From Candidatus Levyibacteriota bacterium (GTDB lineage: Bacteria > Patescibacteriota > Microgenomatia > Levybacterales > UBA12049): 64,000 bases of DNA. This document shows positions 37,454 through 55,268 of the stretch, piece by piece. Position numbers and translations under genes: made by a program. Where the stretch lies: positions 41,553 to 105,552 of the forward strand of contig JAUSEW010000027.1 of NCBI GenBank assembly GCA_030651475.1, given 5' to 3'. The stretch's first letter is position 1, and each line of letters opens with the position of its first letter. The notes under the pieces were generated by a model. It was given only the letters and a program-made list of their open reading frames with translations, searched no databases and was not told where the DNA came from.

Positions 37454-37457
37454 ACGC

Positions 37458-39092
37458 ATGAAAATTAACAGACTGATTATCTTTTCGATAATTTTATTTG
37501 CTATTATTTTAGCAACTTATCATCAGCTATTTCAAACTTTCTATCAGCAGGATGAATGGATAGCTTTGGGTCATATAATGACTCAAACATTCCCCAAATA
37601 TTTTGAACAGTTTAGTAAAACAGCTCTCTTAGGTGGTGGAGGAAGACCGTTATCAGTTCCCTTGCAATATTTTTTGTTTAGCAACTTTCCTTTTCAGGCT
37701 GCCCCATTTGTAGTATTTGCTTTAGTGTTCCATTTTCTGAATAGCTTATTGGTCTTTCTTTTGGCTAAAAAAATAACAAGAAATTTCTTAATTGCTTCTA
37801 TTTCAGCTATTTTTTTTGCTACCTCTTCGGTTTCCCATCAGGCAGTGTCTTGGATTGGGGCAAGTCCAACAACCTTGCCTTCAGCCTTTTTTGCCTTGTT
37901 TTCTATTTTACTTTACTTTCATTTTCTGGAAAATGAGAAGCGAAAGTTTTTTTATCTATCTTTATTTTTCGCTTTGATTTCTTTCTTTTTCAAAGAAAGC
38001 GGTATATTTATTTTTATTCTCCTGCCCTTAATTTATAGGATCTATAAGAAGGTCTCTTTTTATAATTCGCTCAAAAAACATTTTGTAATAATAATTTATT
38101 TATGCGTTGCTGTTTTATCAAGAGTTTACGACCTTTTTTTTGTAAATACTGGCTTAACAACAACCTTCGTGACACGAAACAGCAATACGGTAGAAAGGAT
38201 AATCCTGCATTCTTTTGTCTACCCTTTTGAGTCTCTCTCTCAAGTATTTATATTCCCCTCAATTATGTGGAAATTTTCCCATTTTTTTCTTTCCGTTGTT
38301 TTTCCTTTCGTACTGCACAGTCCTTCAGGAGTCCTAGCGACGGAAACAATGGGGGCCGAAGTTATTTCAATAGCGCTTTCCTCTATTATCTTAATTCTCA
38401 TATTTTTAGTTTACAGAAACGATAAGAAAAACAGGAAAATCATTTTGTTTACTTTACTATTTTTCTTCTTAAGTTTTCTTCCCTATGTTTTTCTTGAAAG
38501 AGGAAATGCATATCTTGACTCGCGCTATTTCTATCTTGGTGTTGTTCCCGCATCTATTATTTTCTCTTTGTTGGTTAATTCAATAAAAAATAGATTAAGT
38601 AAAAACTATTTTTTTCCAATTGCGCTTTTGATAATTATATTTTTTTATAGTCAGATAAAATTTATAAATAATGAACTTGGCTATCAAGTAAATCTTGCGA
38701 GGGAAAGGAAAAATTTTCTGATGTCTTTGAAAAAACTTTATCCAGCGGTACCTACAAATTCCGTTTTTTATATAACTGGTAATCGTGACTTTTATGTTCC
38801 CGATCATAAGATTCCTTTTCAACAGGGAATGGGATATACCCTTATGGTTTGGTATTATAAAACCGGAATTATACCAAAAGAATTTATGAATTCCTTTCTC
38901 TGGGATATTAAAGAGGAGGGCTACAGAGAAAAAGAGAATAAAGGATTTGGTTACTATTGGAACCTAGGTCATCTTTCAACTGATTTAAAAAGAAACGAAA
39001 TAAATAAAAATCGAGTCATAGCTCTTTTTTATGACGCTGACAAAGAAAAACTCGTAGATATAACTAAAAGCGTGAGAGAGGAGCTGAAATAG
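37458..39092 (+). CDS. Polytopic membrane protein, GT-C-like. Paralog of the C-terminal half of 56712..59870.
   Basis: YQQDEWIALGHIM DE motif after TM1. About 12 TM helices. Collinear similarity to residues ~560-1052 of the fusion protein (FFKESGIFIFILLPLIY vs LFHELGIMAPFLVILYD). Confidence 0.45.
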   Translation: MKINRLIIFSIILFAIILATYHQLFQTFYQQDEWIALGHIMTQTFPKYFEQFSKTALLGGGGRPLSVPLQYFLFSNFPFQAAPFVVFALVFHFLNSLLVFLLAKKITRNFLIASISAIFFATSSVSHQAVSWIGASPTTLPSAFFALFSILLYFHFLENEKRKFFYLSLFFALISFFFKESGIFIFILLPLIYRIYKKVSFYNSLKKHFVIIIYLCVAVLSRVYDLFFVNTGLTTTFVTRNSNTVERIILHSFVYPFESLSQVFIFPSIMWKFSHFFLSVVFPFVLHSPSGVLATETMGAEVISIALSSIILILIFLVYRNDKKNRKIILFTLLFFFLSFLPYVFLERGNAYLDSRYFYLGVVPASIIFSLLVNSIKNRLSKNYFFPIALLIIIFFYSQIKFINNELGYQVNLARERKNFLMSLKKLYPAVPTNSVFYITGNRDFYVPDHKIPFQQGMGYTLMVWYYKTGIIPKEFMNSFLWDIKEEGYREKENKGFGYYWNLGHLSTDLKRNEINKNRVIALFYDADKEKLVDITKSVREELK

Positions 39093-40231: not shown

Positions 40232-40870
40232 TCATCTCCTCACCCCTTTTTTATTATAATTATCTATATCGGCTTGTTTAAAAAATTTAACTCCCACATA
40301 ATATTTATTACCTTTATCTACAAAATAACCATAGGAGCGATCTTTAAAAGTACAAGCCCGTAATCTGTATATGGTCTCCTTATCAAATTCCTGAAAGCTA
40401 GTTATTTCTTTTTTCCAATGATAAGTACCTTTTCCAATCTGTGGCTTACTCTCGATTTTACCCATCTTAATTTTTGGCCAGACATCAATGAATAATTTAA
40501 ACATTTCTTTATTGATTCTCTCTTCCAGGTCGCTTGCTATATCCGTAGGATAAACCTTGACCTCCTTTTGGGCGATAACTTCTCCTTTGTCAACCTGTTC
40601 ATTCACATAATGGATTGTTACCCCCGCTGGTGTACCGTCAATTAAAGGCCAAATATGAGTATGCACACCCCTATTGTATGGGAGATAGCCTGGGTGCAGA
40701 TTTATTGTTGGTACCCTTAACTGATCTTTGGTTAATATTTTATCGTAGTATGCCACGATACGAAAATCAGGATCTTTACTGACAATAGTTTCTCCCTGTT
40801 GTTTTAAATAATCTTTAACCTGCTGACCTATTGGTTTGATTGATAAAACTTGAATTTTCATAATGAGCAC
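40232..40870 (-). CDS. Sugar N-formyltransferase (Fmt/PurN/ArnA-N-terminal-domain family)
   Basis: INLHPGYLPYNRGVHTHIWPLIDGTPAGVTIHYVNEQVDKGEVIAQ carries the Asn/His/Asp formyltransferase catalytic signature. No tRNA-binding C-terminal domain (212 aa), as in sugar N-formyltransferases. Confidence 0.7.
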   Translation of the reverse strand: MLIMKIQVLSIKPIGQQVKDYLKQQGETIVSKDPDFRIVAYYDKILTKDQLRVPTINLHPGYLPYNRGVHTHIWPLIDGTPAGVTIHYVNEQVDKGEVIAQKEVKVYPTDIASDLEERINKEMFKLFIDVWPKIKMGKIESKPQIGKGTYHWKKEITSFQEFDKETIYRLRACTFKDRSYGYFVDKGNKYYVGVKFFKQADIDNYNKKGVRR

Positions 40871-41415
40871 AAAATTGATGGTCCCGGTTGGGTCTCTATG
40901 AATTCTAATTTAATACTCCCAAACATCTCCTGAGTATATAGTTTTTTACCTCCCGGAAGATTAACATAGGTATTCCCACTCAATGCTTTTATAATATCTT
41001 TAATTCCATCCACGAATTTACCGTGTGGAATTTCTGATGATAAATAAATAGGCGTCTTAATTTTTAAGACTTGACATATGGCCTTAATAGTTAGATAAAT
41101 ATTATGACTTAATGTATATTTTTGATCCATTATGTCTACAAAAAGGGAATATATATGATAATTAAATCTAGGGGTAAATAGGCGAAACCTTTTTTTATCC
41201 GCCTCAATGTCTTTAAAATAACATTCATTAATTTTGGCATAATCTGAATGTTTTCTTAACCGAAAAGTAAATAGTTTAGGAAAATAATTTCGATTAATCC
41301 AACCGCCTTTTATATATTTAGCGTCATCATATAAAACAAATTTATCAACACTTTTAATGAGCTTAAAAAATCCAGGATACGGAAATAAATAGGGTTGCAT
41401 AACAGCAATTTTCAT
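40858..41415 (-). CDS. WbqC-like family protein (function unknown; recurrently linked to amino-sugar/formyltransferase genes)
   Basis: N-terminus MKIAVMQPYLFPYPGFFKLIKSVDKFVLYDD matches my memory of the WbqC-like family N-terminus. Confidence 0.5.
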   Translation of the reverse strand: MKIAVMQPYLFPYPGFFKLIKSVDKFVLYDDAKYIKGGWINRNYFPKLFTFRLRKHSDYAKINECYFKDIEADKKRFRLFTPRFNYHIYSLFVDIMDQKYTLSHNIYLTIKAICQVLKIKTPIYLSSEIPHGKFVDGIKDIIKALSGNTYVNLPGGKKLYTQEMFGSIKLEFIETQPGPSILCSL

Positions 41416-42077
41416 TATTCACAAACGAAAAAAATACTGGAACATAAATCTGGATATTTCTTGCCCAATTGATAACAACCTTCCATATATTCTGGGGAGA
41501 CAATTTTCCCTAATTGATCTATCTGAAAATTAGCTAAGGCTTTAAAAAAGACCCCTCCTCTATGGACAACCTTCAGTCCTGCTTTTTTAATATCCCGTTC
41601 CATTGTGTCTAACGTATATGTTCTGTAATGCCCATGTTTTATCTCGTCTTTAGTAACTGCTGCATTATGGTCAATTAACCCCATATGAACAGCTATTTGT
41701 CTAGATGGAGCATTGGCGTTGGGACAGGCTATGAATGCTCTGCCTTTGAGATATTCCTTGACTTGTTTTAAAGCCAATACTGCATCCTTAATGTGTTCTA
41801 AGGTATGAACCATCACGATATTATCGTATTTTTCAGGCAATTGAGCCTTTTCAATGGTTGTTTTATAAAACTTAACTTTTACTTCAGGCTCAAATTCAGG
41901 ATCAACGCACGTCACGTTACTAAATCGCATCATCAGTTTTTTAGTCATTACATTTTTCCAACTTCCCACTTCCAATAAATTCCCCTTTTTGAAGAAGGGT
42001 TCGAAAGACCTGATCATATATTCGTGCATCAATGCGTCGAAATTATAGAAGTATAAGCCCGAAACCATATTTCCCAT
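41415..42077 (-). CDS. Class I SAM-dependent methyltransferase
   Basis: GNLLEVGSWKN motif I-like and IVMVHTLEHI motif. Confidence 0.5.
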   Translation of the reverse strand: MGNMVSGLYFYNFDALMHEYMIRSFEPFFKKGNLLEVGSWKNVMTKKLMMRFSNVTCVDPEFEPEVKVKFYKTTIEKAQLPEKYDNIVMVHTLEHIKDAVLALKQVKEYLKGRAFIACPNANAPSRQIAVHMGLIDHNAAVTKDEIKHGHYRTYTLDTMERDIKKAGLKVVHRGGVFFKALANFQIDQLGKIVSPEYMEGCYQLGKKYPDLCSSIFFVCE

Positions 42078-42879
42078 AGGTATTGCCCAAATAAATCATG
42101 TAGTCACCAAACACTGTTGGGTAGTGCTGCATTTCCGAATCCCATCCTTTTTTAGAAAGTGGAATTTTAAAATCAGTCCTAGTCCAGTTTTCTAAGTCAG
42201 TTGAGTATGCGTATCCAATTCTATAGTTGGCCTTATCCCAATCCCTATAAGTAAAATACATGTGGTACTTTCCATCTCTGTAATGGACATCTGGTCCTGC
42301 CTGACACTCGTTTTCTGGTCCTTCAATTAATAGTTTGCCATTAAGAGCAATTTTGTAAACTGGTTTATGGGTGTTTTTGTACTTTAACCACTTTGTACCG
42401 CTTATGTAAAACAAATACCATTTATTATTAAAATGTCTAATCTTTGGTCCACCTTTAAGATATGGCGAATCAATGCTATCTGTTAAAATGGGTCCTTCGC
42501 CAACTTTTGTGAAATGTTCTCCATCTCCTATAGCTTTGCCAATAGCGATGGTAAAAGGGATTGAACCGTGCGGACGTGTCCAACCAGCATAGTACATTAA
42601 ATAATCTTTACCATCTTTGATGACTGACACTGGATAAGTACCATACTCATCAAAGGTTCCAGGCTTACCTAGTGGCAGAAGCGGTCCTTTATTAACCCTT
42701 AGAATCTTCCAATCTTCATCAAAATCAGCATAGCCCGCTACACTTACCGGATCGTTATCTTTTTGGTGTCTGTGGGTAAAATAGACTCTAACAAAACCAT
42801 CCATCTGTATGACAGAAGGGGCTTGAGCATAATCCAAACCATAATCTTGTGGTCTAAAAATTCTCCCTAATTTTTTCAT
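42043..42879 (-). CDS. Five-bladed beta-propeller protein of the GH43/GH32/GH130 superfamily (glycosidase or glycoside-phosphorylase-like)
   Basis: FRPQDY...APSVIQMDGFVRVYFTHR and repeated aromatic/Gly-rich blade-like segments (YLMYYAGW, WYLFYISG, YHMYFTY). The family assignment is tentative. Confidence 0.4.
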   Translation of the reverse strand: MKKLGRIFRPQDYGLDYAQAPSVIQMDGFVRVYFTHRHQKDNDPVSVAGYADFDEDWKILRVNKGPLLPLGKPGTFDEYGTYPVSVIKDGKDYLMYYAGWTRPHGSIPFTIAIGKAIGDGEHFTKVGEGPILTDSIDSPYLKGGPKIRHFNNKWYLFYISGTKWLKYKNTHKPVYKIALNGKLLIEGPENECQAGPDVHYRDGKYHMYFTYRDWDKANYRIGYAYSTDLENWTRTDFKIPLSKKGWDSEMQHYPTVFGDYMIYLGNTYGKYGFGLILL

Positions 42880-43835
42880 GTTGTCACCCCTTTAACAATT
42901 TTAATTATTGAATCCTGTTCCTTATTGGCTAGTTCATAATATAAAGGTAAGCACAAGGCCAGCTTGGCCATATTTTCTGCCAGCGGACAGCTTTGGTTTC
43001 CAAAGATATTGTTTAATGATGGATAAAAGTATCTTCTTGGGAAGATGCCATGCTTATTAAGCGCTTCAATAATCCTTGTGGGATCGGAAGTACACATTAA
43101 AGGATAATAACTCACATCCTTATAATTTGTGCCAAATGCATCATTGTATCTATCAACTAGCTTTTGATACTTTGCAACCACCTTGTCTATATCTTGTAAA
43201 TTACATAGTCCCATTGCCGCGTGGAATTCAGACATTTTAGCGTTTATTCCTACCCCCTGAAAAGCATATTCACTCTTATAGCCAAAATTTCTCATCCATC
43301 TTGCTTTTTCAGCTATTTCATCGTTATTGGTTACAACCGCACCCCCTTCTGCTGTCTGAAATATCTTAGTTGCGTGGAATGAAACGATGGACACATCCCC
43401 ATAATTCATAATTGATTTACCTTTAACTTTGACTGCAAAGGCATGAGAAGCATCGTAAATAACAGGTCTTGCTTTAATCATTTGGGGTATGCCGTAGGTG
43501 TGGGTTACTAAGGCCGGACCCTTGAATTCCTCGTCTAAATCAACAAACTTGGGCGTTATACCTAGCCACATTGGAGCAGAAATAGTTGCAATAAAACTAA
43601 AGGGGGAAACATATATCTCTTTTTTAACATCCAGTGCTTTTAGAGCGATTTCGATTGCCGAAGTGCCATTAGATACACAAACTACGTGTCTTACGCCCCA
43701 ATAGGCTTTTAATTTATTTTCCAACTCCTGAACGAGATTTCCATCATTGGTTAACCAATTAGTCTTCCATATCTTTTTAAGATATTTATTATACTCTATT
43801 AGAGGCGGTAAATAAGTCCTAGAAACAAAGATCAT
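42876..43835 (-). CDS. DegT/DnrJ/EryC1-family PLP-dependent sugar aminotransferase (compact, 319 aa)
   Basis: VSIVSFHATKIFQTAEGGAVVT with Lys present. Confidence 0.75.
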   Translation of the reverse strand: MIFVSRTYLPPLIEYNKYLKKIWKTNWLTNDGNLVQELENKLKAYWGVRHVVCVSNGTSAIEIALKALDVKKEIYVSPFSFIATISAPMWLGITPKFVDLDEEFKGPALVTHTYGIPQMIKARPVIYDASHAFAVKVKGKSIMNYGDVSIVSFHATKIFQTAEGGAVVTNNDEIAEKARWMRNFGYKSEYAFQGVGINAKMSEFHAAMGLCNLQDIDKVVAKYQKLVDRYNDAFGTNYKDVSYYPLMCTSDPTRIIEALNKHGIFPRRYFYPSLNNIFGNQSCPLAENMAKLALCLPLYYELANKEQDSIIKIVKGVTT

Positions 43836-44004
43836 ATTTATCTAAAAAATTTGAAATTCATTCGCTCTTTTATCACACAATCCTAACACACCGATTGTCC
43901 AATTGCAATTCAGTATTTATTAATATTATAATGTGAACTAACATTGCGTCGTAGTTTCGCAATTAAGTTAAAAATAAAAGCCCAAGCAAAATTGTACTAA
44001 TTTT
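43836..44004. promoter_or_regulatory. Largest intergenic gap (169 bp), divergent, with a TATTATAAT element; candidate promoters for the N-formyl-sugar operon (-) and the long + strand operon (44005..63432)
   Basis: attaatattataatgtga read directly. It sits at the head of about 19 kb of co-directional, mostly overlapping genes. Confidence 0.35.
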
Positions 44005-45009
44005 ATGATTAAATGGCCAAAAGTATCACTTGCCCTATTTACCTTAAATGGGGGTGAAGGCGTAAGGAGGTGCTTGGAATCAGTTAGAAAACAAGTATAC
44101 CCAAAAGATAAAATTGAAATTATCGTAATCGATAATAATTCTACAGATGACAGTGTAGACATAGCCAAAAAATATACAAATAAAATAGTTGTAAACAGTA
44201 GGGATGGTTATTTGAATCGAGCAGAGTCGATGAGAATGGCGACTGGCGACTTCGTTTTTATGATACTTGAACAGGATATTGAACTTAGAAGTAAGTATTT
44301 TCTTCAAAAGATGATTAGTCCATTAATTGAAGACGAAAGATTGGTTGCAAGTTTTACAAGGGAGTATCCCAAAAAAGATCAGCCTTGGGTTACAAGATTT
44401 ATCTCTTATAATCCTGCTCAGTGCGATCCCCTTTTCGAATATTTAACACCATCAATTAAAAGCACAATTGTTGAAAAAAAACAAAATTATTTTATCTGTA
44501 AATTTATTGAAGGTAAAATTCCTCCAGTAACGCATATGTTTTTTAGGATTTCTGCTCTTAAAAAATCTGGCGTTTGGAATCAGAAAAGAGATGCCGATCA
44601 CGATACTGTAATAAAACTTATAGAGTATGGATATAATTTATTTGCTTATGTTCCTGATGCAGGCGATTATCATTATCATGCCAAAAATTTAAAAGAACTC
44701 ATCGGGAAAAGAATAAGAAATTTAAATAGACATTATTTTATCTATCATGAAACTACCAAGTATAAATGGGTTGATGTAAACAATAAACAAGAAGTAATAA
44801 AAATGATAATATGGGTTCTTTACGCCAACTCATTAATTTTTCCAGCAATAAGAGGAATTATTAGATTTATAAAATATAAGGATTGGGCATTATTGCTCGA
44901 ACCTGTTATTGCTGTTTCCGTAACAGATGTGCTTATTTGGACATTTCTAAGAAACAAAGCGGGAAGAAAAATAATTATCGATTCACTAAGATCTCTTATG
45001 TTAAAATAA
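44005..45009 (+). CDS. Glycosyltransferase, GT2 family
   Basis: VSLALFTLNGGEG...IEIIVIDNNSTDDS motifs. Confidence 0.65.
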   Translation: MIKWPKVSLALFTLNGGEGVRRCLESVRKQVYPKDKIEIIVIDNNSTDDSVDIAKKYTNKIVVNSRDGYLNRAESMRMATGDFVFMILEQDIELRSKYFLQKMISPLIEDERLVASFTREYPKKDQPWVTRFISYNPAQCDPLFEYLTPSIKSTIVEKKQNYFICKFIEGKIPPVTHMFFRISALKKSGVWNQKRDADHDTVIKLIEYGYNLFAYVPDAGDYHYHAKNLKELIGKRIRNLNRHYFIYHETTKYKWVDVNNKQEVIKMIIWVLYANSLIFPAIRGIIRFIKYKDWALLLEPVIAVSVTDVLIWTFLRNKAGRKIIIDSLRSLMLK

Positions 45010-45010
45010 C

Positions 45011-46735
45011 ATGAAAGTACTAGGGATTCATTTTCAGAGTCATGATACGTCTGTTGCTCTAGTCGAAAATGGCAATATTCTTTACGCCGCTAGCAACGAG
45101 CGTTTTTCAAGAAGAAAAATGGATGCTAATCCTCCTTTGGATGCTTTGAAAGATTGTCTTTCATACTCAAAGACAAAGCCACAAGATATCGATAAGGTTG
45201 TTTTCGTTGGGGATCCGTTTCCGTATTCTTACGTGGGGAGATTAAAAGAATTATCATGGCCATTTATATATACAAAAGGACGTTATCTTTTATGGTGGAG
45301 AAAACCGCATCTTATTTTATGGGAGTTATTTATTGCAACAGGGATTCCTAGCTTTTTATACAGAGAGTTACTTCCACGCATTTTAATTAGGGGAAAACTT
45401 AATGGATTTAAAGGAAAATATTCATATGTGCATCACCATTTTGCTCACATGTATTCTGCTTATTACACATCCGGTTGGAAAGACTGTCTTGTTATGTGCA
45501 GTGAAGGTTCTGGATTTTCTGAAACAATGTCTATCTATCATGTAAGGAAGGGGGAATGGATAAAAGTGGTAGAAAATTATTTACCTCATTCGGCAGGCAA
45601 ATTTTATGAACTGGTTACTGTTATGTTAGGTTTTAATGTATTGAGGCACCCAGGGAAAATCACCGGACTAGCAGCATATGGTAATCCAAACACAGTATAT
45701 AATGCAGTAAAAGATCTTTTATCGGTTAACGGGTTAAAGCTTAAGCTCAATTACGAAAAGTATTTAAAGTGGGGAATTAACTATTCCCTTACGAAGACTT
45801 TACCGAAAGAGTTAAGGGGAAATAGAAGGGAAGATATTGCTGCTGCATTTCAAAAGAGACTTGAAGAATGCATAGTCGAAATTGTCAAAAAAGCAGTAGA
45901 AAAAACCGGAGAAAAGAAGCTTTCGTTTGCGGGTGGGGTGGCGGCCAATGTTAAGCTTAACCAAAGACTGCATGAAGAAGCGGGAATAAATGAAATTTAT
46001 ATACATCAGGCAATGGGGGACGATGGCTTAGCTCTGGGTGCAGCATTACACACAGCGTTTTTAAATGGATTTCAAATAAAGCAATCGGATAATGTTTATT
46101 TCGGACCGGATTTTAGCGAACAAGAAATTAAAAAGAGTTTAAATAAATTTAATTTAAAATTTAGTAAAGAAAATAACATAGAGATAAAAATAGCAAAGCT
46201 TTTAGCAGAAAGTAAAATTGTGGCCAGGTTTAATGGAAGAATGGAATATGGGCCCAGAGCATTGGGCAATAGATCCATTCTTTACAAAACGACAGACAGA
46301 GGGGTTAACAATTGGCTTAATAAACGTCTTAAAAAAAGATCGGATTTTATGCCTTTTGCGCCCGTGACTCTTGATTCGTTCGCAGATAAATGCTTCAAAA
46401 ACCTTAAAGGAGCTGAATATGCTGCTCGATTTATGACAATTACTTTCGATGTCACGTCTTATATGAAAAAGCTTTCCCCTGCTGTTGTTCATGTGGATGG
46501 TACCGCAAGACCGCAGATTATAAGAAGTAAAGATAACCCCAGTTATTATAAACTACTTGAGGAATACTACAAACTAACCGGTATACCGTCTCTTATTAAC
46601 ACAAGTTTCAATATGCATGAAGACCCAATAGTTTGTAGTCCGGATGATGCAATAGAATCATTTTTAAGCGGAAGTCTAGATTATTTGGCAATTGGCAATT
46701 ATTTAGTAAGTTATGAGCAAAATAATAAAAAATAG
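45011..46735 (+). CDS. Carbamoyltransferase (NodU/CmcH/NovN/TobZ family)
   Basis: N-terminus VLGIHFQSHDTSVALVENGNILYAASNERFSRRK is the canonical Carbam_trans_N signature. HHHFAHMYSAYY metal-binding His cluster. About 570 aa, typical for the family. Confidence 0.85.
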   Translation: MKVLGIHFQSHDTSVALVENGNILYAASNERFSRRKMDANPPLDALKDCLSYSKTKPQDIDKVVFVGDPFPYSYVGRLKELSWPFIYTKGRYLLWWRKPHLILWELFIATGIPSFLYRELLPRILIRGKLNGFKGKYSYVHHHFAHMYSAYYTSGWKDCLVMCSEGSGFSETMSIYHVRKGEWIKVVENYLPHSAGKFYELVTVMLGFNVLRHPGKITGLAAYGNPNTVYNAVKDLLSVNGLKLKLNYEKYLKWGINYSLTKTLPKELRGNRREDIAAAFQKRLEECIVEIVKKAVEKTGEKKLSFAGGVAANVKLNQRLHEEAGINEIYIHQAMGDDGLALGAALHTAFLNGFQIKQSDNVYFGPDFSEQEIKKSLNKFNLKFSKENNIEIKIAKLLAESKIVARFNGRMEYGPRALGNRSILYKTTDRGVNNWLNKRLKKRSDFMPFAPVTLDSFADKCFKNLKGAEYAARFMTITFDVTSYMKKLSPAVVHVDGTARPQIIRSKDNPSYYKLLEEYYKLTGIPSLINTSFNMHEDPIVCSPDDAIESFLSGSLDYLAIGNYLVSYEQNNKK

Positions 46736-49700
46736 CAAATTTTTTGAAATATTGTTTATTTTTTTAATATCCCTTACTCCTTTTCTTTGGCTTCGAAATG
46801 GGCAAGTGATACTGGGGCATGATTCGGGTTTTCGTTTAGACTCGTTTACATATTGGCTCAATCTTCTTTACTCTTGGAACCCAATTCCCAATTTTGGTTC
46901 TGATTGGTCAATATTCAAAGGATTTCTCATCACCCAGCTTCCTGAAGCTTTATTTACGACACTAACGGGATCATTAGGTGATGGTCAACTGCTAACGTTT
47001 ATTTTCTGGTTTTTCGCTATAGGACTTTCTATGTATATTTTCGTTAACTCCTTCCATAAAGACAGTAAATTTTGGTTTTTAAGAATATTTGCAAGTACGT
47101 TTTATATGTATAATTTTTTTCTTTTGCAGGCGTGGTTTATCGCGGAGAGAGCGAAATTTTCGATTTACATAGCATTACCATTATGTGTGCTTTTATTATA
47201 TAAAACATTAACAAAGCAGATATCCTTATGGAAGGGTCTTTTCTTCTTTTCTCTACTTTTATTCTTCTTTAATGCCGGAGGCGCGCCAACATTCCTTGGC
47301 TCCTTTTTTGTTTCTTTTGCTGCAACGCTTATATATTTTGCTATAAGAAACTTTCAAAAAGGCGGTATACGTGAGCTTACATATGCTCTTAAGGTTGGTA
47401 TTTTGTTTCTTGTGGGATTCATTATAGTAAATGCCTATTGGATTCTTCCCCAAGCCTATTTGATGTTTCATAATTATAGTTCTTCGTTGGTTGCAAGCGG
47501 AGGGATAAACGGAATTATAGGATGGGAAGCAACAATAAGTAAAAACGCGAGTTTAATAAATTTGCTGCGCTTACAGGGAATACCTGATTGGTACAAAAAT
47601 CCAATCCATCCTTATTCATCATTTTATCTAGAAAATGTTTTTCTTATTGGGTTTAGTTTTTTATTCCCGATCATATTGGTAGGATCACTTATTTTGATTG
47701 CTGCTAAGGGATGGAAAAATCACAATAGGCAACTTCTACTGTTAATATTGGCTTTGTTTCTTATCGGCATTATTTTTACAGCAGGTTCGCATCCGCCAAC
47801 TGGTTTCTTATACGTATTACTCATTAAATATATACCGGTTTTTCCTATTTTCAGATCTTCATTCTACAAATTTGGTGTTACTTTTTGGTTTCCAGCTATT
47901 TTTCTTATTTCGTATGGACTTTATGCTATCCTTACGAATTACATAAAGAATAAAAAATTGTACTTTTTATGTTCAGCCTTAGCTGTTGTTGCTATTCTTG
48001 CTTTTCACTTTCCTTACTTTAGCGCCAATTTCTTTACATGGAATAAGCCATATTCTACGAGAGTAAAAATTCCAAGCTATGTAGCCACGATGTCTAATTA
48101 CATAAATACTCTTCCTTCATCCACGCGAATACTTTTGCTGCCAAGCCTTGATCCGGTTTTTCATGCAGATATAACTGATTGGAATTTCTGGAGCTTGGAT
48201 TTGCTGCCTCGTTTAACAACAAATAAATCTATAGTTGCCGATAGTGCCGGGGCTCCTCCGATTATAGGAAATATGTATAGAGCGATTGAGCTTGGAAACG
48301 AAGAACAGTTTTTACGTTTAGCATACATAAGCGGTGTTAATAAGATACTCTGGAGAGATGATGCCGTTTATAGCAACGGAACGAAAGTCAATGCGCAACT
48401 GCATTATAGAGAAAATACAATTAAAAGCTTTCATTCCCTACGACTTTTAAAGCAAGAGGGAAAGTGGAGATTATACGATATTGCGTTTGCCAAATTGCCT
48501 ATGGATTTTTTTGTTCCTGATAATATTAGCGTAAATTCAAAATACAATTCATACCAAGGACAGCTTATGGCAGAAAAATCAACAACAGGCTCTGCTTTAT
48601 TAGAAGACGCGAAATTTTCCTTGGGTAATGTTGTTAATAAGCAATATATTCAGGCGAATTGCGTATTGTGCGAAATGCACGCTTTCGAAAATATTGCAGC
48701 ACGGATTGATGTTCCTCAATTACGCCTTTTGCCGAATTCAAAACTCTATTTTTTAGTGAAGGCTAAAGAATATATAGGTCTACTAAGGACTAAGGGTTAC
48801 GAAGCTAGGGCGTTAACGGACATGATTTATTCATACAGAAGAATAGCTGAAATAAATAATTTATTAAGGAAAAACAATGATGATCATAATTTTAACCAAG
48901 AAGTTTTTTCAAACATTTCTCGTTTCAAAAAAAATATAAATAATGCTCTGGCAGAGGCGAATCTATTGTCTGTAGAGAAACGAAACGATCTTCTTATAAG
49001 AATATATGCATACCTTTACCACGAAAATAGCAGTACTAATTCATTTATCCATAATAGTCAGGCTAACGCAGCCATTGACAATCTTGAGTTATTTATTGTC
49101 CAAAAAATGAACATGTTGGAGAATACAATATGGATGACTAAAGATAAAACAGATAAGAAATATTTTGTTGATATTCCATTCGCCGGAAATTACTCTTTAG
49201 TATTTACTAACATAGGTCAAGTAACGCCAAGCGAAATATATCTTGACGGAGAGAGAATAAATGCTCAAGACGCCCGTATGGAAAAGGGGACCCATAAATT
49301 AGAAGTTATATATTCTCCGCTTGAAAATATGTTAGTTAAGCCAGCCGATGGGGAACTCTCTTTCAATATTCCCAACGGGGAGAAGGAGAGATTTACTCTT
49401 AAGCCGCTTTCCCGCGCAAATTTATACACAGTGTCATTTGATTATCGTTTTAATAGCGGTATTCCGCCAAATATAAAAATTACTCAAGATGCGATTGAAA
49501 GCGATAATAAGTACGAGCTTACACGGAAAGACGGAGAGCTATTGAGCGCAGAAGGAACATGGAATAGATATGAATATATTGTGGGTGGCGATCCTAATTC
49601 GAAAAATTTCTCCTTAGATTTCCTTATTTGCTGCAAGAACGGAAAAAATTCTAACTTTACAATTAAAAATTTAAATGTGGCTCAATTGTTCGAACCGGGA

Positions 49701-50111
49701 GTTAATTTTGTCAGTACGAATACAAATGTTCAAGATACTCGGGTTGGGAATATCTCCTATAGACAGCTTGACCCTACGAAATATATTGTTTCCGTTCATA
49801 ACGCAGCTACTCCATATGTCTTGTCGTCTAGGATCGGATACGATGCTGGTTGGAAAGCTCTTGTTCTTGATTCATCCAAATCGCAAAATAATAGCAGTTT
49901 TGCTACTGCTTTATTCCAGAATGGGCTACAACAAATTACTCCTTATAAGACAAACACTTTTGCCAACGCTTGGTATATAAATAAAAAAGGGAGTTATGAT
50001 GTGCTTATAGAATATGAGCCGCAGCGATTCTTTTACATTGGCGGGTTAATTTCTCTGATTTCTTTCCCGCTTTTGGCATCACTATTTATTTTTAAAGGAA
50101 AAAAACAATGA
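46713..50111 (+). CDS. Large (1132 aa) YfhO-like GT-C membrane protein: N-terminal multi-TM domain, ~600 aa extracytoplasmic beta-rich domain, C-terminal TM anchor
   Basis: About 13 TM helices in the first ~470 aa. The C-terminal GYDAGWKALVLDSS...KGSYDVLIEYEP...TM motif is shared with 1..933 and 50482..52401. Confidence 0.45.
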   Translation: MSKIIKNSKFFEILFIFLISLTPFLWLRNGQVILGHDSGFRLDSFTYWLNLLYSWNPIPNFGSDWSIFKGFLITQLPEALFTTLTGSLGDGQLLTFIFWFFAIGLSMYIFVNSFHKDSKFWFLRIFASTFYMYNFFLLQAWFIAERAKFSIYIALPLCVLLLYKTLTKQISLWKGLFFFSLLLFFFNAGGAPTFLGSFFVSFAATLIYFAIRNFQKGGIRELTYALKVGILFLVGFIIVNAYWILPQAYLMFHNYSSSLVASGGINGIIGWEATISKNASLINLLRLQGIPDWYKNPIHPYSSFYLENVFLIGFSFLFPIILVGSLILIAAKGWKNHNRQLLLLILALFLIGIIFTAGSHPPTGFLYVLLIKYIPVFPIFRSSFYKFGVTFWFPAIFLISYGLYAILTNYIKNKKLYFLCSALAVVAILAFHFPYFSANFFTWNKPYSTRVKIPSYVATMSNYINTLPSSTRILLLPSLDPVFHADITDWNFWSLDLLPRLTTNKSIVADSAGAPPIIGNMYRAIELGNEEQFLRLAYISGVNKILWRDDAVYSNGTKVNAQLHYRENTIKSFHSLRLLKQEGKWRLYDIAFAKLPMDFFVPDNISVNSKYNSYQGQLMAEKSTTGSALLEDAKFSLGNVVNKQYIQANCVLCEMHAFENIAARIDVPQLRLLPNSKLYFLVKAKEYIGLLRTKGYEARALTDMIYSYRRIAEINNLLRKNNDDHNFNQEVFSNISRFKKNINNALAEANLLSVEKRNDLLIRIYAYLYHENSSTNSFIHNSQANAAIDNLELFIVQKMNMLENTIWMTKDKTDKKYFVDIPFAGNYSLVFTNIGQVTPSEIYLDGERINAQDARMEKGTHKLEVIYSPLENMLVKPADGELSFNIPNGEKERFTLKPLSRANLYTVSFDYRFNSGIPPNIKITQDAIESDNKYELTRKDGELLSAEGTWNRYEYIVGGDPNSKNFSLDFLICCKNGKNSNFTIKNLNVAQLFEPGVNFVSTNTNVQDTRVGNISYRQLDPTKYIVSVHNAATPYVLSSRIGYDAGWKALVLDSSKSQNNSSFATALFQNGLQQITPYKTNTFANAWYINKKGSYDVLIEYEPQRFFYIGGLISLISFPLLASLFIFKGKKQ

Positions 50112-50485
50112 AAAGATTACTAAATTTATTTTTAAATTTGTCTAAGAAAACGGAAAAAGTTACTTCTGAATATCAGGGGAGACTTTTATTCTTGATGATT
50201 ATCCTTTTAACTCTAACTGTTTTTGCAAATTTACCTTATTTTAATATTCTACTAACAATCTCTAACATTATATGGATTATGATTTTGGTTTCTTTATTCA
50301 TTTTTCGAATACGGATGAAAAATTTATTATTGATAGCGATTATTCTTATTGGAACTGCTCTAATCAGCGTTTTAGCTGATAATCGAGAAGTGGCGGAAAT
50401 TTTAGGAAATTCGATTTACCTTATCTTAATCATAGTTTTTACTTCCAATTTCGTTGAATATTTAAAAGAAATTAAAAAATCATGA
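50108..50485 (+). CDS. Small polytopic membrane protein (3-4 TM), unknown function
   Basis: 125 aa, mostly hydrophobic. ATGA-coupled between the two YfhO-like genes. Confidence 0.35.
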   Translation: MKRLLNLFLNLSKKTEKVTSEYQGRLLFLMIILLTLTVFANLPYFNILLTISNIIWIMILVSLFIFRIRMKNLLLIAIILIGTALISVLADNREVAEILGNSIYLILIIVFTSNFVEYLKEIKKS

Positions 50486-52401
50486 TGTTTAATTTTCCTT
50501 TCCTTGATTGGTTTTCTCAGAAAATAATCGTGGGCGGAGATTGGCGGTTTTTTTGGCCGGAAAACATTGGTGACTTCGTTACCTTTCCGACCGCCTGGGA
50601 TGCAAGTCTAAATACAGGTTTAGGTTCTCCATCTTTTAGCCTCATGTGGATAAATACTTATCTCAATTTTACTGCCGTATTTAGCAAGCTTGGTCTATCA
50701 TGGAATTTAATCGGTTTGTTATTTTGGATGCTGCCTGCCATAGCTCTGTCCTTTTTTTCCGCTTTTTATTGTTTCAAATATCTTTTTCCAAAAAGAACAA
50801 AATATGGGATTCTGGCTGGGATTATTTATCTCTTTAACACGTATTTCCTGATGGTATTTACCGGAGGCCAATTGGGTATCTCTCTGGCTTATTCCATCGC
50901 TCCTTTTGTATTTTTAACTTTCACAAAAAGCATAGATAATCCGACTTTTAGAAAAAGTTTGTTTTCTTCTTTGGTACTCGGATTACAAATGCTTTTTGAT
51001 CCAAGGTTGGTATATATAACCTTCATAGCAATATTCATTTATTGGCTATTTAACATAAAAAATATGAAACAGGTAATTTTTGCTTTCGTTCTTCCTTTTC
51101 TAATAGGATTCATGCTCCATAGCTATTGGATTGTTCCTCTAATCTTGACAAGATCATCTTCCATACAGGCGGGCTTTACTAGCTTGTTGGGGTTAAGATT
51201 TTTTAGTTTTTCTGATTTCTCACACTCTTTATCTTTTCTTCATCCAAATTGGCCGGAAAATATATTCGGTAAAGTATATTTCCTGAAACCTGAATTTTTA
51301 TTACTTCCAATACTGGCTTTTTCATCATTACTTTTTATTAAGAAAGAGACTAAGGAAAAGAAAAAAAATATATTATTTTTTGCAATTTTAGGATTACTTG
51401 GAGCATTTTTGGCAAAGGGAGCAAGCGATCCATTTGGTATAACATATGAGTTTGCGTTTCGATATATTCCTGGATTTGTTGCGTTTAGGGATCCTACGAA
51501 ATTCTATTTGCTGATATCTTTGTCTTACTCAATGCTTATACCCTTTGCGATCTTGTCTTTATCTAATTGGATTTCTTTACGATTCAAAATGAAAGGTTAT
51601 ATATCAAACGTCCTGTTAGTGGTTTCCATTTCTTACGTTTTGGTTTTGGCAAGTCCTGTTCTCGTGAGGCAATTTAATCGAATAGCTACGCCCCATATGA
51701 TACCTAATGACTACGTAGAATTAAAGAATTTCTTAGGCATCCAGCCTCAATTCTTTCGCACCCTTTGGATTCCTTCCATGCAAAGATTTGGTTTTTTTTC
51801 CAATAATCATCCTGCAATTTCGGGCATTAATAATTTTAACGCAAACGCACCTAAGGATTTTGATACATTTCTTAGTGAGGCCGCGGTTCAATACGTAATA
51901 GTACCGTACGATTCGGAAAAGGAGTTATTCTTAAAAGACAGGAAATATGATGAGAAGCAGTATGATCAAACGGTAAAGTCGTTAAGAAATATAGAATGGC
52001 TAAAGAAAATAGAGGGTTTTGGGAAAATTGCGGTTTTTGAAAACTCAAATTATAAAGATCATTTTTGGAGCCGTAACTCAAACCTTAAAATTAATTATAA
52101 GTATATTAATTCCACAAAATATTATGTTGATATTGAAAATTCCAAAAAAGGAGATGTTTTGGTATTTTCGGAGGGGTTTGATAAAAATTGGCAAGCGCAA
52201 ATTGACAGTAGTTTGATAAATTCAAAGCCCTATGATAAGCTCTATAATAGCTTTGTTTTGTCAAAGGGCGGAAGCTACACGGTTGAAGTTGTTTATTCTG
52301 TCCAGAAGTGGGTAAATATGGGATTAATTGTGAGTTTTGCTACCTTAACGATTTTGATAGGCAGTTTGCTATATATACAAATTAAAAATAAATATGATTA
52401 G
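50482..52401 (+). CDS. YfhO-like GT-C membrane protein (639 aa)
   Basis: Multi-TM N-terminal domain. C-terminal FSEGFDKNWQAQIDSS...KGGSYTVEVVYS...TM motif paralogous to 46713..50111 and 1..933. Confidence 0.45.
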   Translation: MMFNFPFLDWFSQKIIVGGDWRFFWPENIGDFVTFPTAWDASLNTGLGSPSFSLMWINTYLNFTAVFSKLGLSWNLIGLLFWMLPAIALSFFSAFYCFKYLFPKRTKYGILAGIIYLFNTYFLMVFTGGQLGISLAYSIAPFVFLTFTKSIDNPTFRKSLFSSLVLGLQMLFDPRLVYITFIAIFIYWLFNIKNMKQVIFAFVLPFLIGFMLHSYWIVPLILTRSSSIQAGFTSLLGLRFFSFSDFSHSLSFLHPNWPENIFGKVYFLKPEFLLLPILAFSSLLFIKKETKEKKKNILFFAILGLLGAFLAKGASDPFGITYEFAFRYIPGFVAFRDPTKFYLLISLSYSMLIPFAILSLSNWISLRFKMKGYISNVLLVVSISYVLVLASPVLVRQFNRIATPHMIPNDYVELKNFLGIQPQFFRTLWIPSMQRFGFFSNNHPAISGINNFNANAPKDFDTFLSEAAVQYVIVPYDSEKELFLKDRKYDEKQYDQTVKSLRNIEWLKKIEGFGKIAVFENSNYKDHFWSRNSNLKINYKYINSTKYYVDIENSKKGDVLVFSEGFDKNWQAQIDSSLINSKPYDKLYNSFVLSKGGSYTVEVVYSVQKWVNMGLIVSFATLTILIGSLLYIQIKNKYD

Positions 52402-53320
52402 TTTTGTTATTCCGGTTTTTAATGAGGAGGAAAGTCTTACCCCTTTTTATGAAGATTTAAAGTCTTCCCTTAAGGACAGGAAGGAATATGAGATTGTTTT
52501 TATTGACGATGGGTCAACTGATAAATCATTGCGAATATTAAAAGATCTGCATAGCAAGAATTCGAATATAAGAATTTTTTCGTTTAGAAAAAATCAAGGT
52601 AAGTCAGAAGCTTTAACATTAGGTTTTGGTAAAGCAAAAGGAGATTGTATAGTTACACTGGATGCGGATTTGCAGGATAGGCCTTCCGAAGCCCCAAAAC
52701 TTATAGAAAAGCTTAAAGAAGAAGATTTTGATCTTGCTTGCGGATGGAGAAAGAATAGGAAAGATCCATTGCGTAAAGTTATCTCTTCCAAATTCTTTAA
52801 CTTTCTTGCTTCGTTTTTCTGGGGATTAAAACTTCATGATTACAATTGCGGACTGAAGGCATACGCAAAAGATGCTGCCAAAAGCTTAAGGCTTTATGGC
52901 GGGATGCACAGATTTATTCCTCTTCTTGTCCACGAGCAGGGATTTAAGGTTTGTGAAATGCCAGTTAACCATGACGAAAGGAAATACGGTAAGTCAAAAT
53001 ACGGTTTTTCCAAGCTTTGGAATGATTTACCGGATATATTCACTATGTTGTTTCTAACAAGATATAGTAAAAGACCCCTTCATTTTTTTGGTCCAATAGG
53101 ATTCATCTTTCTGACAATAGGAGGAGCGATTTTAGCATATCTCTTTGCGATTAAAATCATGGGTCAAGGCATCGGAGACAGACCATTATTGTTTCTCGGG
53201 ATGATTCTTGTTCTAAGCGGTTTCCAAGTTTTATTTACAGGATTTTTGGCAGATATAATAATAAATACTTCAAGTAAGGAAACTAAAGACTTTCCCATTA
53301 AGTATTCAAGCGAAAAATAG
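52394..53320 (+). CDS. GT2 polyprenyl-phosphate sugar synthase (GtrB/CsbB/ArnC-like) with C-terminal TM helices
   Basis: ISFVIPVFNEEESL...EIVFIDDGSTDKS...LDADLQDRPSE GT-A domain, with two C-terminal TM helices. Confidence 0.8.
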   Translation: MISFVIPVFNEEESLTPFYEDLKSSLKDRKEYEIVFIDDGSTDKSLRILKDLHSKNSNIRIFSFRKNQGKSEALTLGFGKAKGDCIVTLDADLQDRPSEAPKLIEKLKEEDFDLACGWRKNRKDPLRKVISSKFFNFLASFFWGLKLHDYNCGLKAYAKDAAKSLRLYGGMHRFIPLLVHEQGFKVCEMPVNHDERKYGKSKYGFSKLWNDLPDIFTMLFLTRYSKRPLHFFGPIGFIFLTIGGAILAYLFAIKIMGQGIGDRPLLFLGMILVLSGFQVLFTGFLADIIINTSSKETKDFPIKYSSEK

Positions 53321-53566: not shown

Positions 53567-54124
53567 ATGAAAATAGGAATTGACGTTTCACAGCTTGCTT
53601 TTGAGGATACTGGAGTAGCGAATTATCTTTCGAATTTAATTAAGCATTTATTAGCTACAGATAAGAAAAATCAGTATATACTGTTTTATTCATCATTGAG
53701 GAGAAAATTTCCCCACTTCGCCAAGGCTTCCCTCGACTACGCTCGGGACAAGTCGGCGGGCAAGCAAAATTTCAAAATAAAGAGTTTTAGATTTCCGCCT
53801 ATGCTTTTGGATTTACTTTGGAATAAACTTCATATGGTGCCGATAGAGTGGCTGATTGGGGATGTTGATATTTTTATAACTTCTGACTGGACAGAACCGC
53901 CAACTAGAAAAGCGAAGAAAGCTACGATTCTATACGACTTAATTGTCTATAAATATCCGAACGAAACTGATAATAAAATTGTTGAGACACAAAAAAGAAA
54001 GCTTAAGTGGGTTAAAAAAGAGTCTGACATGGTTTTTTGCATATCTGAATCAACTGCAAAAGACGCGGAAGAGGTTTTAGGCATTGATAAAAATAAATTA
54101 AGGATTATTTATCCGGGAATTTAA
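53567..54124 (+). CDS. GT4 N-terminal-domain-only ORF: truncated paralog of the downstream GT4 (possible pseudogene or split GT-B)
   Basis: MKIGIDVSQLAFEDTGVANYL... parallels MIIGIDGNEANVEKRVGIGEY... of the next gene. Ends ...RIIYPGI* exactly where the paralog continues ...VTYPGIKEEL... into its C-domain. Confidence 0.4.
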   Translation: MKIGIDVSQLAFEDTGVANYLSNLIKHLLATDKKNQYILFYSSLRRKFPHFAKASLDYARDKSAGKQNFKIKSFRFPPMLLDLLWNKLHMVPIEWLIGDVDIFITSDWTEPPTRKAKKATILYDLIVYKYPNETDNKIVETQKRKLKWVKKESDMVFCISESTAKDAEEVLGIDKNKLRIIYPGI

Positions 54125-54128
54125 CATT

Positions 54129-55268
54129 ATGATTATTGGAATAGATGGTAATGAGGCGAATGTTGAGAAAAGAGTGGGGATTGGGGAATATGCGTTCGAA
54201 CTGCTTGAGCAATTCGAGAAATTTAGAATTCAGAATTTAGAATTCAGAATTTATTTGAAAAATGAGTCAATAAACGATATGCCGAAAGAAAGAAAGGGAT
54301 GGCAATATCGTGTAATCGGGCCAAGAAAGCTTTGGACTCAATTTGGTTTACCTCTGGATTTATTTTTTCATAAACCAAGACCTGATGTTTTTTTTACGCC
54401 TACTCATTACGCGCCTCGTTTTTCTCCGGTACCAACCGTAATATCCATAATGGATTTGTCTTACGTTCACTTTCCAAAACTTTTTAAAAAATCAGACTTG
54501 TATCAGCTGAAAAATTGGACAGCTTATTCGGCAAAAAATGCGAAAAAAATCTTAACTATCAGTAAATTCAGCAAAGATGATATAATCAAAACATATCAAA
54601 TACCAGGAGATAGGGTTGTGGTTACGTATCCTGGAATTAAAGAAGAATTAGGAATTATGAATCAAGTTTACCCTGAGCAAAGTCGAAGGGAATCAAGCGA
54701 ACTTCAAAGCAAGTATGGAATTAAGGGGAAATATATTTTGTTTGTAGGAACGTTACAACCAAGAAAGAACATTATTCGTTTGATCGAAGCATTTAGTAAA
54801 ATTTCCTTAATCCTTAATCCTTTATCATTAATCATTATCGGTAAGAAGGGGTGGATGTATGAAGAAATTTTGGAAGCGCCAAAAAAGTTTAACATTGTAA
54901 ATAGAGTCAAATTCTTGGAATTCGTGTCCAACGAAGACCTTCCGTTTTTATACCAAAACGCAGAGTGTTTTGTCTTGCCTTCGCTTTATGAAGGATTTGG
55001 TCTGCCGGTTTTGGAAGCAATGAGATATGGGTGCCCTTGCGTTATTAGCAACATTAGCAGTTTGCCTGAAGCAGGCGGAGATGCGGCTTTTTATTTTGAT
55101 CCAAGTAACGCATCAGATATTGCTGCGAAAATAGAAATGGTTTTAAATGACGAAAAATTAAGAAAAGAAATGATAGAAAAAGGTTATAAACAGGTTAAAA
55201 AGTTTAGCTGGGAAAAAACAGCACAAGAGACGCTGAAGGTCTTGGAGGAAGTAGCAAGAAATGGATAG
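54129..55268 (+). CDS. Glycosyltransferase, GT4 family
   Basis: EGFGLPVLEAMRYGCPCVISN motif and full two-domain GT-B layout. Confidence 0.8.
   Translation: MIIGIDGNEANVEKRVGIGEYAFELLEQFEKFRIQNLEFRIYLKNESINDMPKERKGWQYRVIGPRKLWTQFGLPLDLFFHKPRPDVFFTPTHYAPRFSPVPTVISIMDLSYVHFPKLFKKSDLYQLKNWTAYSAKNAKKILTISKFSKDDIIKTYQIPGDRVVVTYPGIKEELGIMNQVYPEQSRRESSELQSKYGIKGKYILFVGTLQPRKNIIRLIEAFSKISLILNPLSLIIIGKKGWMYEEILEAPKKFNIVNRVKFLEFVSNEDLPFLYQNAECFVLPSLYEGFGLPVLEAMRYGCPCVISNISSLPEAGGDAAFYFDPSNASDIAAKIEMVLNDEKLRKEMIEKGYKQVKKFSWEKTAQETLKVLEEVARNG
54219..54254. repeat. About 2.5 copies of a 14-bp tandem repeat (AATTTAGAATTCAG-like) inside the GT4 CDS
   Basis: aaatttagaattca gaatttagaattca gaatttat read directly from the sequence. 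Encodes FRIQNLEFRIY. Confidence 0.7.

Follow-up and report, generated by a model that had tools for sequence, protein, structure and literature searches.

Class III carbamoyltransferases condense carbamoyl phosphate and ATP to carbamoyl-AMP in a YrdC-like domain and transfer the carbamoyl group in a Kae1-like domain. TobZ, the tobramycin/kanamycin 6''-O-carbamoyltransferase (Protein Data Bank (PDB) 3VEN), has a polar sugar as acceptor, and for NodU and NolO, the Nod-factor O-carbamoyltransferases, the acceptor at the cytoplasmic membrane is a lipid-anchored oligosaccharide. In Pseudomonas, O-carbamoylation of the lipopolysaccharide (LPS) core heptose has been proven chemically, and the putative carbamoyltransferase WapO/PA5005 is credited with it (PMC8005017). 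Here we describe a class III carbamoyltransferase gene in a 64-kb stretch of DNA from a Candidatus Levyibacteriota bacterium (lineage Patescibacteria group, Microgenomates group; assembly GCA_030651475.1, contig JAUSEW010000027.1, positions 41,553 to 105,552), a member of the candidate phyla radiation (CPR); the whole stretch analysed is referred to as the window. Judged from its sequence and by analogy, the gene most likely encodes a functional, soluble class III enzyme that carbamoylates a sugar of a cell-envelope glycan precursor (probability about 0.75). An earlier note on this DNA, made by a model from the sequence alone, had predicted a carbamoylated surface glycan; this prediction stands as the best reading of the glycan-locus context. 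The gene and its predicted functional parts are as follows (window coordinates).

45011-46735, + strand: class III (TobZ/NodU/CmcH-type) carbamoyltransferase gene, an ATG-to-TAG open reading frame (ORF) of 574 amino acids (aa)
45014-46048, aa 2-346, + strand: Kae1-like N-domain, predicted carbamoyl transfer site (Pfam Carbam_trans_N)
46193-46711, aa 395-567, + strand: YrdC-like C-domain, predicted to form carbamoyl-adenylate (Pfam Carbam_trans_C)
45041-45043, + strand: H11, general base, equivalent to TobZ H14 and GdmN H27 by alignment
45434-45436, + strand: H142, metal ligand, equivalent to GdmN H133 by alignment
45446-45448, + strand: H146, metal ligand, equivalent to GdmN H137 by alignment
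45503-45505, + strand: E165, candidate metal ligand, equivalent to GdmN D156 (Asp in TobZ, GdmN and NovN)
46019-46021, + strand: D337, metal ligand, equivalent to GdmN D333 by alignment
C-domain, + strand: K441, adenylation-site residue, equivalent to TobZ K443
46604-46606, + strand: S532, adenylation-site residue, equivalent to TobZ S530
C-domain motifs: GPRALGNRS (aa 414-422), R443, H494, R500 and NTSFN (aa 530-534)

Both domains match their Pfam profiles far above the gathering score, Carbam_trans_N (PF02543; 1e-45) at residues 2-346 over profile positions 1-346 of 346, and Carbam_trans_C (PF16861; 2.2e-60) at residues 395-567 over positions 1-169 of 170; a chance domain match is excluded. 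Weaker TsaD and HypF matches (Pfam/NCBIfam) are expected superfamily echoes. The closest PDB sequences are NovN (7e-72), TobZ (1e-66), GdmN (5e-64) and 7xb6 (VtdB; 9e-63), such that the closest solved proteins are class III carbamoyltransferases throughout, of the O-carbamoyl type. An AlphaFold2 model, with a 33-sequence alignment as input, has a predicted local distance difference test score (pLDDT) of 90.8 and a predicted template modelling score (pTM) of 0.90. In Foldseek, the model superposes on TobZ, GdmN, NovN and VtdB over both domains and about 600 columns (template modelling scores 0.82-0.87), whereas Kae1/TsaD structures overlay its N-domain only (about 0.39). No transmembrane (TM) segment is predicted in the protein, which is therefore soluble and cytoplasmic by prediction. 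The C-terminus lies 7 residues past the C-domain, and the dimerisation domain of GdmN and NovN is lacking. Class III enzymes without this domain usually have polar acceptors (PMC9633730), which would favour a polar acceptor here.

The catalytic residues were mapped by alignment to NovN and TobZ, with reference to the TobZ variants K443A and S530A (H14, K443 and S530 variants have been crystallised), and their conservation was gauged in two sets, a clade alignment of 33 sequences and a sample of 208 homologues. In GdmN, iron is bound by H133, H137, D156 and D333, and H27 is the general base (PMC9633730). The counterparts of three of these ligands, H142, H146 and D337, are kept in 205-206 of the 208 homologues; the histidines belong to the cluster YVHHHFAHMY at residues 139-148. 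H11 is invariant in the clade alignment and present in 175 of the 208; more than 98% of them keep GPRALGNRS, R443, H494, R500 and NTSFN, and K441 is likewise invariant or nearly so. The predicted third ligand is Glu165, which occurs in 111 of the 208 sampled homologues: in every one with at least 50% identity and in about half of those at 40-50%, whereas homologues below 40% identity carry Asp, like the structurally characterised class III enzymes. Glu at position 165 defines a large subfamily of class III carbamoyltransferases. Because no sampled homologue with at least 50% identity departs from Glu165, selection rather than decay is indicated, and the residue is best read as a clade-wide conservative variant that keeps a carboxylate.

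In all testable features of sequence and fold, the protein thus conforms to the class III carbamoyltransferases, and the gene is, to judge from its sequence and the structural model, a real and intact member of the TobZ/NodU type. In this the earlier note was right. The N-terminal peptide it had quoted as typical of Carbam_trans_N is residues 3-36 of an ORF whose ends (45011-46735) it gave exactly, and its His cluster is the one described above. Its assignment to the NodU/CmcH family is borne out by strong matches to both Pfam profiles and by intact metal-binding His residues, and the residues it had wanted compared in the Kae1-like and YrdC-like domains are kept (H11, H142, H146, D337, K441 and S532, with E165 replacing Asp). 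The name NodU is apt for the family but not for the protein itself: orthology to NodU was rejected, with a score of 156.5 bits against the NCBIfam NodU equivalog (NF041651), for which the cutoff is 1000.

A deposited 'carbamoyltransferase C-terminal domain-containing protein' of a Candidatus Levybacteria bacterium matches the window protein at 100% identity, and at least 8000 homologues exist at E<=1e-10, with relatives in 80 genomes from many phyla (e.g., Pelagibacter, Photorhabdus, Planctomycetota, Methanosarcinales, and Thermococcus). The window protein is an ordinary, already annotated member of a very common enzyme family, one that abounds in the glycan loci of bacteria and archaea. Several related glycan loci (designated here by L numbers) encode two divergent carbamoyltransferase paralogues that are 32-37% identical to the window protein (L004/L006, 8001-15370; L086, 104-1891; L088, 12409-14148; and L047), so that in some lineages a glycan system may receive more than one carbamoylation. 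Literature searches turned up few characterised examples of envelope-glycan carbamoylation besides Pseudomonas and, for CPR bacteria, nothing on carbamoyltransferases or carbamoylated glycans beyond the ornithine carbamoyltransferase of the arginine deiminase system. The earlier remark that such decoration is rarely reported therefore applies to chemistry and experiments; it does not extend to the genes, which are very common, and the Pseudomonas LPS core is a known case (PMC8005017).

The entire window (GC content about 0.34 throughout) is one glycan super-locus, to which all 58 ORFs of at least 100 aa belong (Pfam). It encodes at least 14 glycosyltransferases of family 2 (GT2), seven of family 4 (GT4), about 10 GT-C-type membrane proteins, including several of PMT_2 type, and four DegT aminotransferases, in addition to epimerases, dehydratases (one PglF-like), FkbM and other methyltransferases, a nucleoside diphosphate (NDP)-hexose C-methyltransferase, a sugar N-formyltransferase, a WbqC-like protein, a hexapeptide acyltransferase, an acetyltransferase, and a Wzx-like flippase. 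A glycan super-locus that fills 64 kb is an unusually large investment for a small-genome CPR bacterium. Within it, the carbamoyltransferase gene is one of six genes at 44005-53320 that overlap or lie 1 nt apart (ORF map); these and the neighbouring features that bear on the argument are listed below.

36287-37453, + strand: GT4 (Pfam)
37458-39092, + strand: PMT_2-like GT-C candidate of 544 aa, termed Memb544 (hhalign)
40232-43835, - strand: divergent amino-sugar tailoring operon of DegT, a 278-aa ORF, a methyltransferase, a WbqC-like protein and a sugar N-formyltransferase (Pfam)
43836-44004, no strand assigned: divergent intergenic region 5' of the six-gene operon, with its top promoter-like match at 43903-43932 (+)
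44005-45009, + strand: GT2 glycosyltransferase of 334 aa with two C-terminal TM helices (Pfam Glycos_transf_2, 5e-18)
46713-50111, + strand: 1132-aa polytopic membrane protein with 10 N-terminal TM helices and one C-terminal TM helix, AftD-like GT-C candidate
50108-50485, + strand: 125-aa protein with four predicted TM helices (no Pfam or NCBIfam match)
50482-52401, + strand: 639-aa paralogue of the 1132-aa protein with eight TM helices and a C-terminal TM helix, second GT-C candidate
52394-53320, + strand: ArnC/GtrB-type GT2 of 308 aa with two C-terminal TM helices (Pfam, 4e-36), the operon's last gene

The TAA of the upstream GT2 (45007-45009) is separated by 1 nt from the carbamoyltransferase ATG at 45011, and the next ORF begins at 46713, before the carbamoyltransferase stop codon (46733-46735). 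The overlap with the start of the 1132-aa gene, 23 nt long, is as previously described; for the claimed translational coupling to the GT2, the 1-nt spacing is compatible, but spacing alone does not show it. A promoter and terminator scan of the window gave counts below shuffled expectation, and the site at 43903-43932 is merely compatible with the operon start. The upstream GT2 was also considered as an ArnC/GtrB-type enzyme, which sequence comparison does not support, as it gives only the common GT-A core.

The 1132-aa protein is deposited under locus tag Q7R31_02915 of the same organism and belongs to a family of 259 proteins that are annotated as hypothetical and whose source, in the few records that name one, is always CPR/Patescibacteria. 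The motif GHD-x-GFR (G35-H36-D37-x-G39-F40-R41) in the first loop after TM helix 1 is invariant in the family, an internal stretch of the window protein (aa 672-750) resembles DUF5667, and C650 and C653 are a conserved Cys pair. When 25 members were compared with Pfam, 12 matched PF11847 (GT-C_AftD) and 19 matched DUF5667; the window's own protein scores below the Pfam threshold for PF11847, such that the GT-C_AftD assignment is made at family level. The earlier note had called this neighbour YfhO-like, which the comparisons do not support: PF09586 is absent from the protein, and none of the 25 family members matches it at E<=0.1, so that the description holds only in the general sense of a GT-C-type membrane glycosyltransferase. 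At family level, we regard the protein as a candidate AftD-like membrane glycosyltransferase of GT-C type. The 639-aa protein resembles it in the TM domain as well as in the C-terminal domain (BLASTP, 9e-09). For the 125-aa protein, Pfam and NCBIfam give no match to GtrA or ArnE/F, and its topology would suit a flippase-like (GtrA/ArnE-F-like) role. The 308-aa GT2 has PDB sequence matches to ArnC (7e-43), GtrB (sll0501; 2e-26) and DPM synthase (4e-18), and is a candidate polyprenyl-phosphate sugar synthase.

Memb544, encoded 6 kb upstream of the carbamoyltransferase gene, represents a second family of candidate partners, with about 550 aa, 10 TM helices, no Pfam match, and an invariant QQDEW after TM helix 1. 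A comparison by hhalign relates this family to PMT_2 proteins (99.5%, E 4e-22), with QQDEW aligned to QPDEGW, and shows it to be a divergent PMT_2/GT-C family; in the same kind of profile comparison, the relation of the AftD-like family to PMT_2 proteins is not significant (7%). The two membrane GT-C candidates at 46713-50111 and 37458-39092 have 10-11 predicted TM helices.

Glycan loci host all nine other carbamoyltransferases of at least 60% identity (L001-L003, L008, and L086-L090) as well as a 55% relative (L004-L006). Neighbour labels in the 80 genome loci come from BLASTP against the window ORFs, which is insensitive for distant phyla and noisy at high GC content, and are used qualitatively. 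L008, from a Patescibacteria metagenome-assembled genome with a carbamoyltransferase 89% identical to that of the window, is collinear from the DegT/formyltransferase genes to the ArnC-like GT2; it keeps the length of the 1132-aa ORF (about 1131 aa) and, on the 3' side of the AftD-like gene, a small protein of the 125-aa type. The carbamoyltransferase gene of L086 (73% identical) likewise precedes genes for an AftD-like protein of 1139 aa and a small protein of 110 aa. This 110-aa protein and a 108-aa ORF in L089/L090 occupy the place of the 125-aa protein, a correspondence of position that does not imply homology. In L001, L003, L088, L089, and L090 (62-66% identical), the next gene encodes a 10-TM Memb544 protein of about 550-570 aa; homology of the 1132-aa protein to the ~550-aa proteins after the L001 and L003 carbamoyltransferases was considered and rejected, as BLASTP finds none and these belong to the Memb544 family. 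In L003/L089/L090, GT4 is followed by the carbamoyltransferase and this by Memb544; the window has its counterpart GT4 and Memb544 genes side by side (36287-39092), with the carbamoyltransferase 6 kb away before a different GT-C gene. L003/L089/L090 also encode orthologues of the 639-aa protein. Further cases are the paralogous carbamoyltransferase of L086 (32% identical), 5' of a Memb544 orthologue, and that of L047 (Omnitrophota; 37% identical), 5' of a Memb1132-like protein.

Adjacency was counted where the next same-strand gene after the carbamoyltransferase encodes a protein with at least eight TM helices. This applies to eight of 10 loci (seven of nine distinct loci) at 60% identity or more, to none of 22 at 40-60%, and to six of 60 below 40%, against a background in which 16% of ORFs in CPR loci encode such proteins. 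The naive binomial P for seven of nine distinct loci is 8e-5, or about 0.004 if three independent events are assumed. The family of the adjacent GT-C switches between loci (AftD-like, Memb544/PMT_2-like, or Memb1132-like). The pairing of carbamoyltransferase and GT-C genes is suggestive, and the number of independent events is small.

From these data we infer an active enzyme with a sugar acceptor, which would operate as follows. The YrdC-like C-domain would, by homology, condense carbamoyl phosphate and ATP to carbamoyl-AMP, which the Kae1-like N-domain would hold at a metal bound by His142, His146, Glu165, and Asp337; His11 would then deprotonate the acceptor group, allowing it to attack the carbamoyl carbon. 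The acceptor would most likely be a sugar hydroxyl, and less likely an amino group, in an envelope glycan precursor. A glycan acceptor is the best reading of the context, given the glycan genes that fill the 64 kb, the lack of a dimerisation domain, and the relatives in glycan loci. A membrane-anchored, lipid-linked intermediate at the inner face of the membrane is the most probable form of this acceptor, and it would be the most economical one because the genes around it encode a TM-anchored GT2, GT-C candidates, a 4-TM protein, and an ArnC-like GT2. Carbamoylation would precede export, because the reaction requires cytoplasmic ATP and carbamoyl phosphate and because GT-C active sites face outward; the downstream GT-C-type membrane glycosyltransferases would then install the carbamoylated product outside the cell. 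The adjacency to GT-C genes likewise hints that a lipid-linked sugar is carbamoylated and only then exported.

Several observations weigh against carbamoylation of an envelope glycan sugar by this enzyme. No source of carbamoyl phosphate is encoded within the 64-kb window, and the arginine deiminase route is missing from most environmental Saccharibacteria, another CPR group (PMC8764695). Family members also use non-sugar acceptors, among them ansamycins, cephalosporins, and 5-hydroxymethylcytosine. The predicted third metal ligand is Glu, where characterised class III enzymes have a highly conserved Asp. The immediate neighbours of the carbamoyltransferase are not conserved beyond close relatives, and its adjacency to GT-C genes may represent perhaps only about three to four independent events.

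Among other explanations, a decayed or catalytically dead copy, to which the exchange of Asp for Glu at the third metal ligand might point, is hardly credible in view of the full-length ORF, the conservation of every other catalytic residue, the confident model, and the fixation of Glu165 among the closer homologues. That the gene is merely housed in a glycan locus and acts on a small metabolite, a nucleic-acid base, or a protein is very unlikely: the family's acceptors are diverse, including polyketides and 5-hydroxymethylcytosine in phage DNA (PMC8670742), but the gene is surrounded by a six-gene operon of glycosyltransferases and membrane proteins with overlapping frames, its close relatives all lie in glycan loci, and no biosynthetic, phage, or DNA-modification genes are seen among the window ORFs. 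The enzyme might instead carbamoylate a soluble nucleotide-activated sugar before glycosyltransfer, or N-carbamoylate a DegT-made amino sugar to give a ureido sugar. The solubility of the protein, the four DegT aminotransferases, the many NDP-sugar tailoring enzymes, and the DegT/formyltransferase operon 170 bp away would all suit this, as would the N- and S-carbamoyl transfer carried out by TsaD/Kae1 and HypF, to which the protein has weak domain matches. The closest solved relatives, however, are all O-carbamoyltransferases, and the enzyme would have to compete with the nearby formyltransferase for the amino group. To our knowledge, moreover, characterised class III members act late, on hydroxyls of assembled acceptors (Nod factors, tobramycin, novobiocin, and geldanamycin), and we consider both variants, the soluble nucleotide-activated sugar and the ureido sugar, quite improbable.

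A pathway in the manner of Arn is also on the unlikely side. A TM-anchored GT2 would make a polyprenyl-phosphate-linked monosaccharide, which would be carbamoylated, flipped by the 4-TM protein, and then used as donor by an AftD-like or PMT_2-like GT-C enzyme, in parallel with ArnD, which acts between ArnC and ArnT. The carbamoyltransferase gene does lie between a 2-TM GT2 and a GT-C gene, followed by the 4-TM protein, the GT-C paralogue, and the GT2 with its 7e-43 match to ArnC; GT-C enzymes use polyprenyl-phosphate-linked donors; and the adjacency recurs with AftD-like (window, L008, and L086), Memb544/PMT_2-like (L001, L003, L088-L090, and the L086 paralogue), and Memb1132-like (L047) proteins. 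Against this, the directly upstream GT2 is not ArnC/GtrB-like in sequence, the trio of GT2, AftD-like protein, and small TM protein occurs without the carbamoyltransferase in L089/L090, and the density of GT-C genes (16% of ORFs) makes adjacency weak evidence. We know of no carbamoylated polyprenyl-phosphate sugar. The generalisation that TobZ-type carbamoyltransferases of Microgenomates/CPR bacteria, together with one Omnitrophota case, are dedicated GT-C partners with a Glu-variant metal site that act on a polyprenyl-phosphate-linked sugar is speculative, and we would give it a low chance of being correct.

Other features of the super-locus are recorded here in their own right. The DegT, WbqC, and formyltransferase genes of the divergent operon are retained beside the module in L008; counterparts of its methyltransferase (41415-42077, -) and 278-aa ORF (42043-42879, -), the latter with a weak Glyco_hydro_32N-like match, were not detected in the otherwise collinear L008, and 41415-42879 looks like a recent two-gene indel in this operon. 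A 185-aa ORF at 53567-54124, with a GT4 N-terminal domain only, lies directly 5' of a full-length GT4 (54129-55268). The same split pair is present in L003, L089, and L090 at 52-61% identity, and this conservation marks it as a genuine pair of genes, as opposed to a pseudogene split by a frameshift. A 1052-aa protein with 22 TM helices (56712-59870) has a Memb544-like C-terminal half, apparently fused to another membrane domain. The locus also contains the NDP-hexose C-methyltransferase (Methyltransf_13/14) and a split transketolase-like pair (23820-25055, -, and 1932-3103, -, respectively), which suggest branched-chain or chain-extended sugars; in L004, a similar transketolase pair stands beside the carbamoyltransferase homologue. 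The partial ORF at 52-933 (+), unrelated to the 1132-aa protein, is the sole window protein with a YfhO Pfam match (C-terminal region, 3.6e-07).

CPR bacteria carry very large loci for surface glycans, and a carbamoyltransferase is a pointer to the chemistry of these. A carbamoyl substituent would alter hydrogen bonding, and possibly recognition, of the surface on which an epibiotic lifestyle may depend. If the pairing with GT-C genes holds phylogenetically, it would provide a testable hypothesis for the pathway stage of carbamoylation, which is not known even for the Pseudomonas LPS core. If the GT-C partnership is indeed a dedicated one, the envelope would be decorated outside the cell with pre-carbamoylated sugars, by an Arn-like tailoring on a lipid carrier of a kind not previously described.

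Among the described enzymes, GdmN, NovN, and VtdB are the best sequence and fold matches to the window protein (7e-72 for NovN; template modelling score 0.87 for VtdB) and have the same catalytic apparatus, but in GdmN and NovN the C-terminus is extended by a dimerisation domain of about 100 aa, and these two bind hydrophobic macrocycles or aglycone-linked sugars (PMC9633730). TobZ has the same two-domain layout, about 570 aa, and no dimerisation domain; it superposes on the model with template modelling scores of 0.82-0.83 and has equivalents of the base His, the two His ligands, the distal Asp, and the adenylation-site residues (K443 and S530). It is only about 29% identical to the window protein, its third ligand is Asp where the window protein has Glu, and it belongs to an antibiotic gene cluster instead of an envelope-glycan locus; in addition, a helical region at about residues 70-135 of the window protein, which would line the acceptor pocket, is not aligned to TobZ or NovN in sequence searches. 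NodU and NolO belong to the same Pfam family, and their lipid-anchored oligosaccharide is the kind of acceptor proposed here, although no nod genes are present in the window and the host is a CPR bacterium. WapO/PA5005, a putative 7-O-carbamoyltransferase, is likened to the window gene by context and not by sequence, as a carbamoyltransferase-family gene in an envelope-glycan cluster; its pathway, unlike the window locus, is that of a Gram-negative LPS core. The Arn (ArnC, ArnD, ArnE/F, and ArnT) and Gtr/CsbB-YfhO systems differ in their parts, since the tailoring enzyme here is a carbamoyltransferase and not a deformylase as in Arn, and the GT-C candidate is AftD-like and not of the ArnT/YfhO kind. 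Their gene logic nonetheless matches that of the window operon, in which a TM-anchored GT2, a cytoplasmic tailoring enzyme, a small multi-TM protein, and a GT-C candidate are encoded together, a likeness that would be purely one of function.

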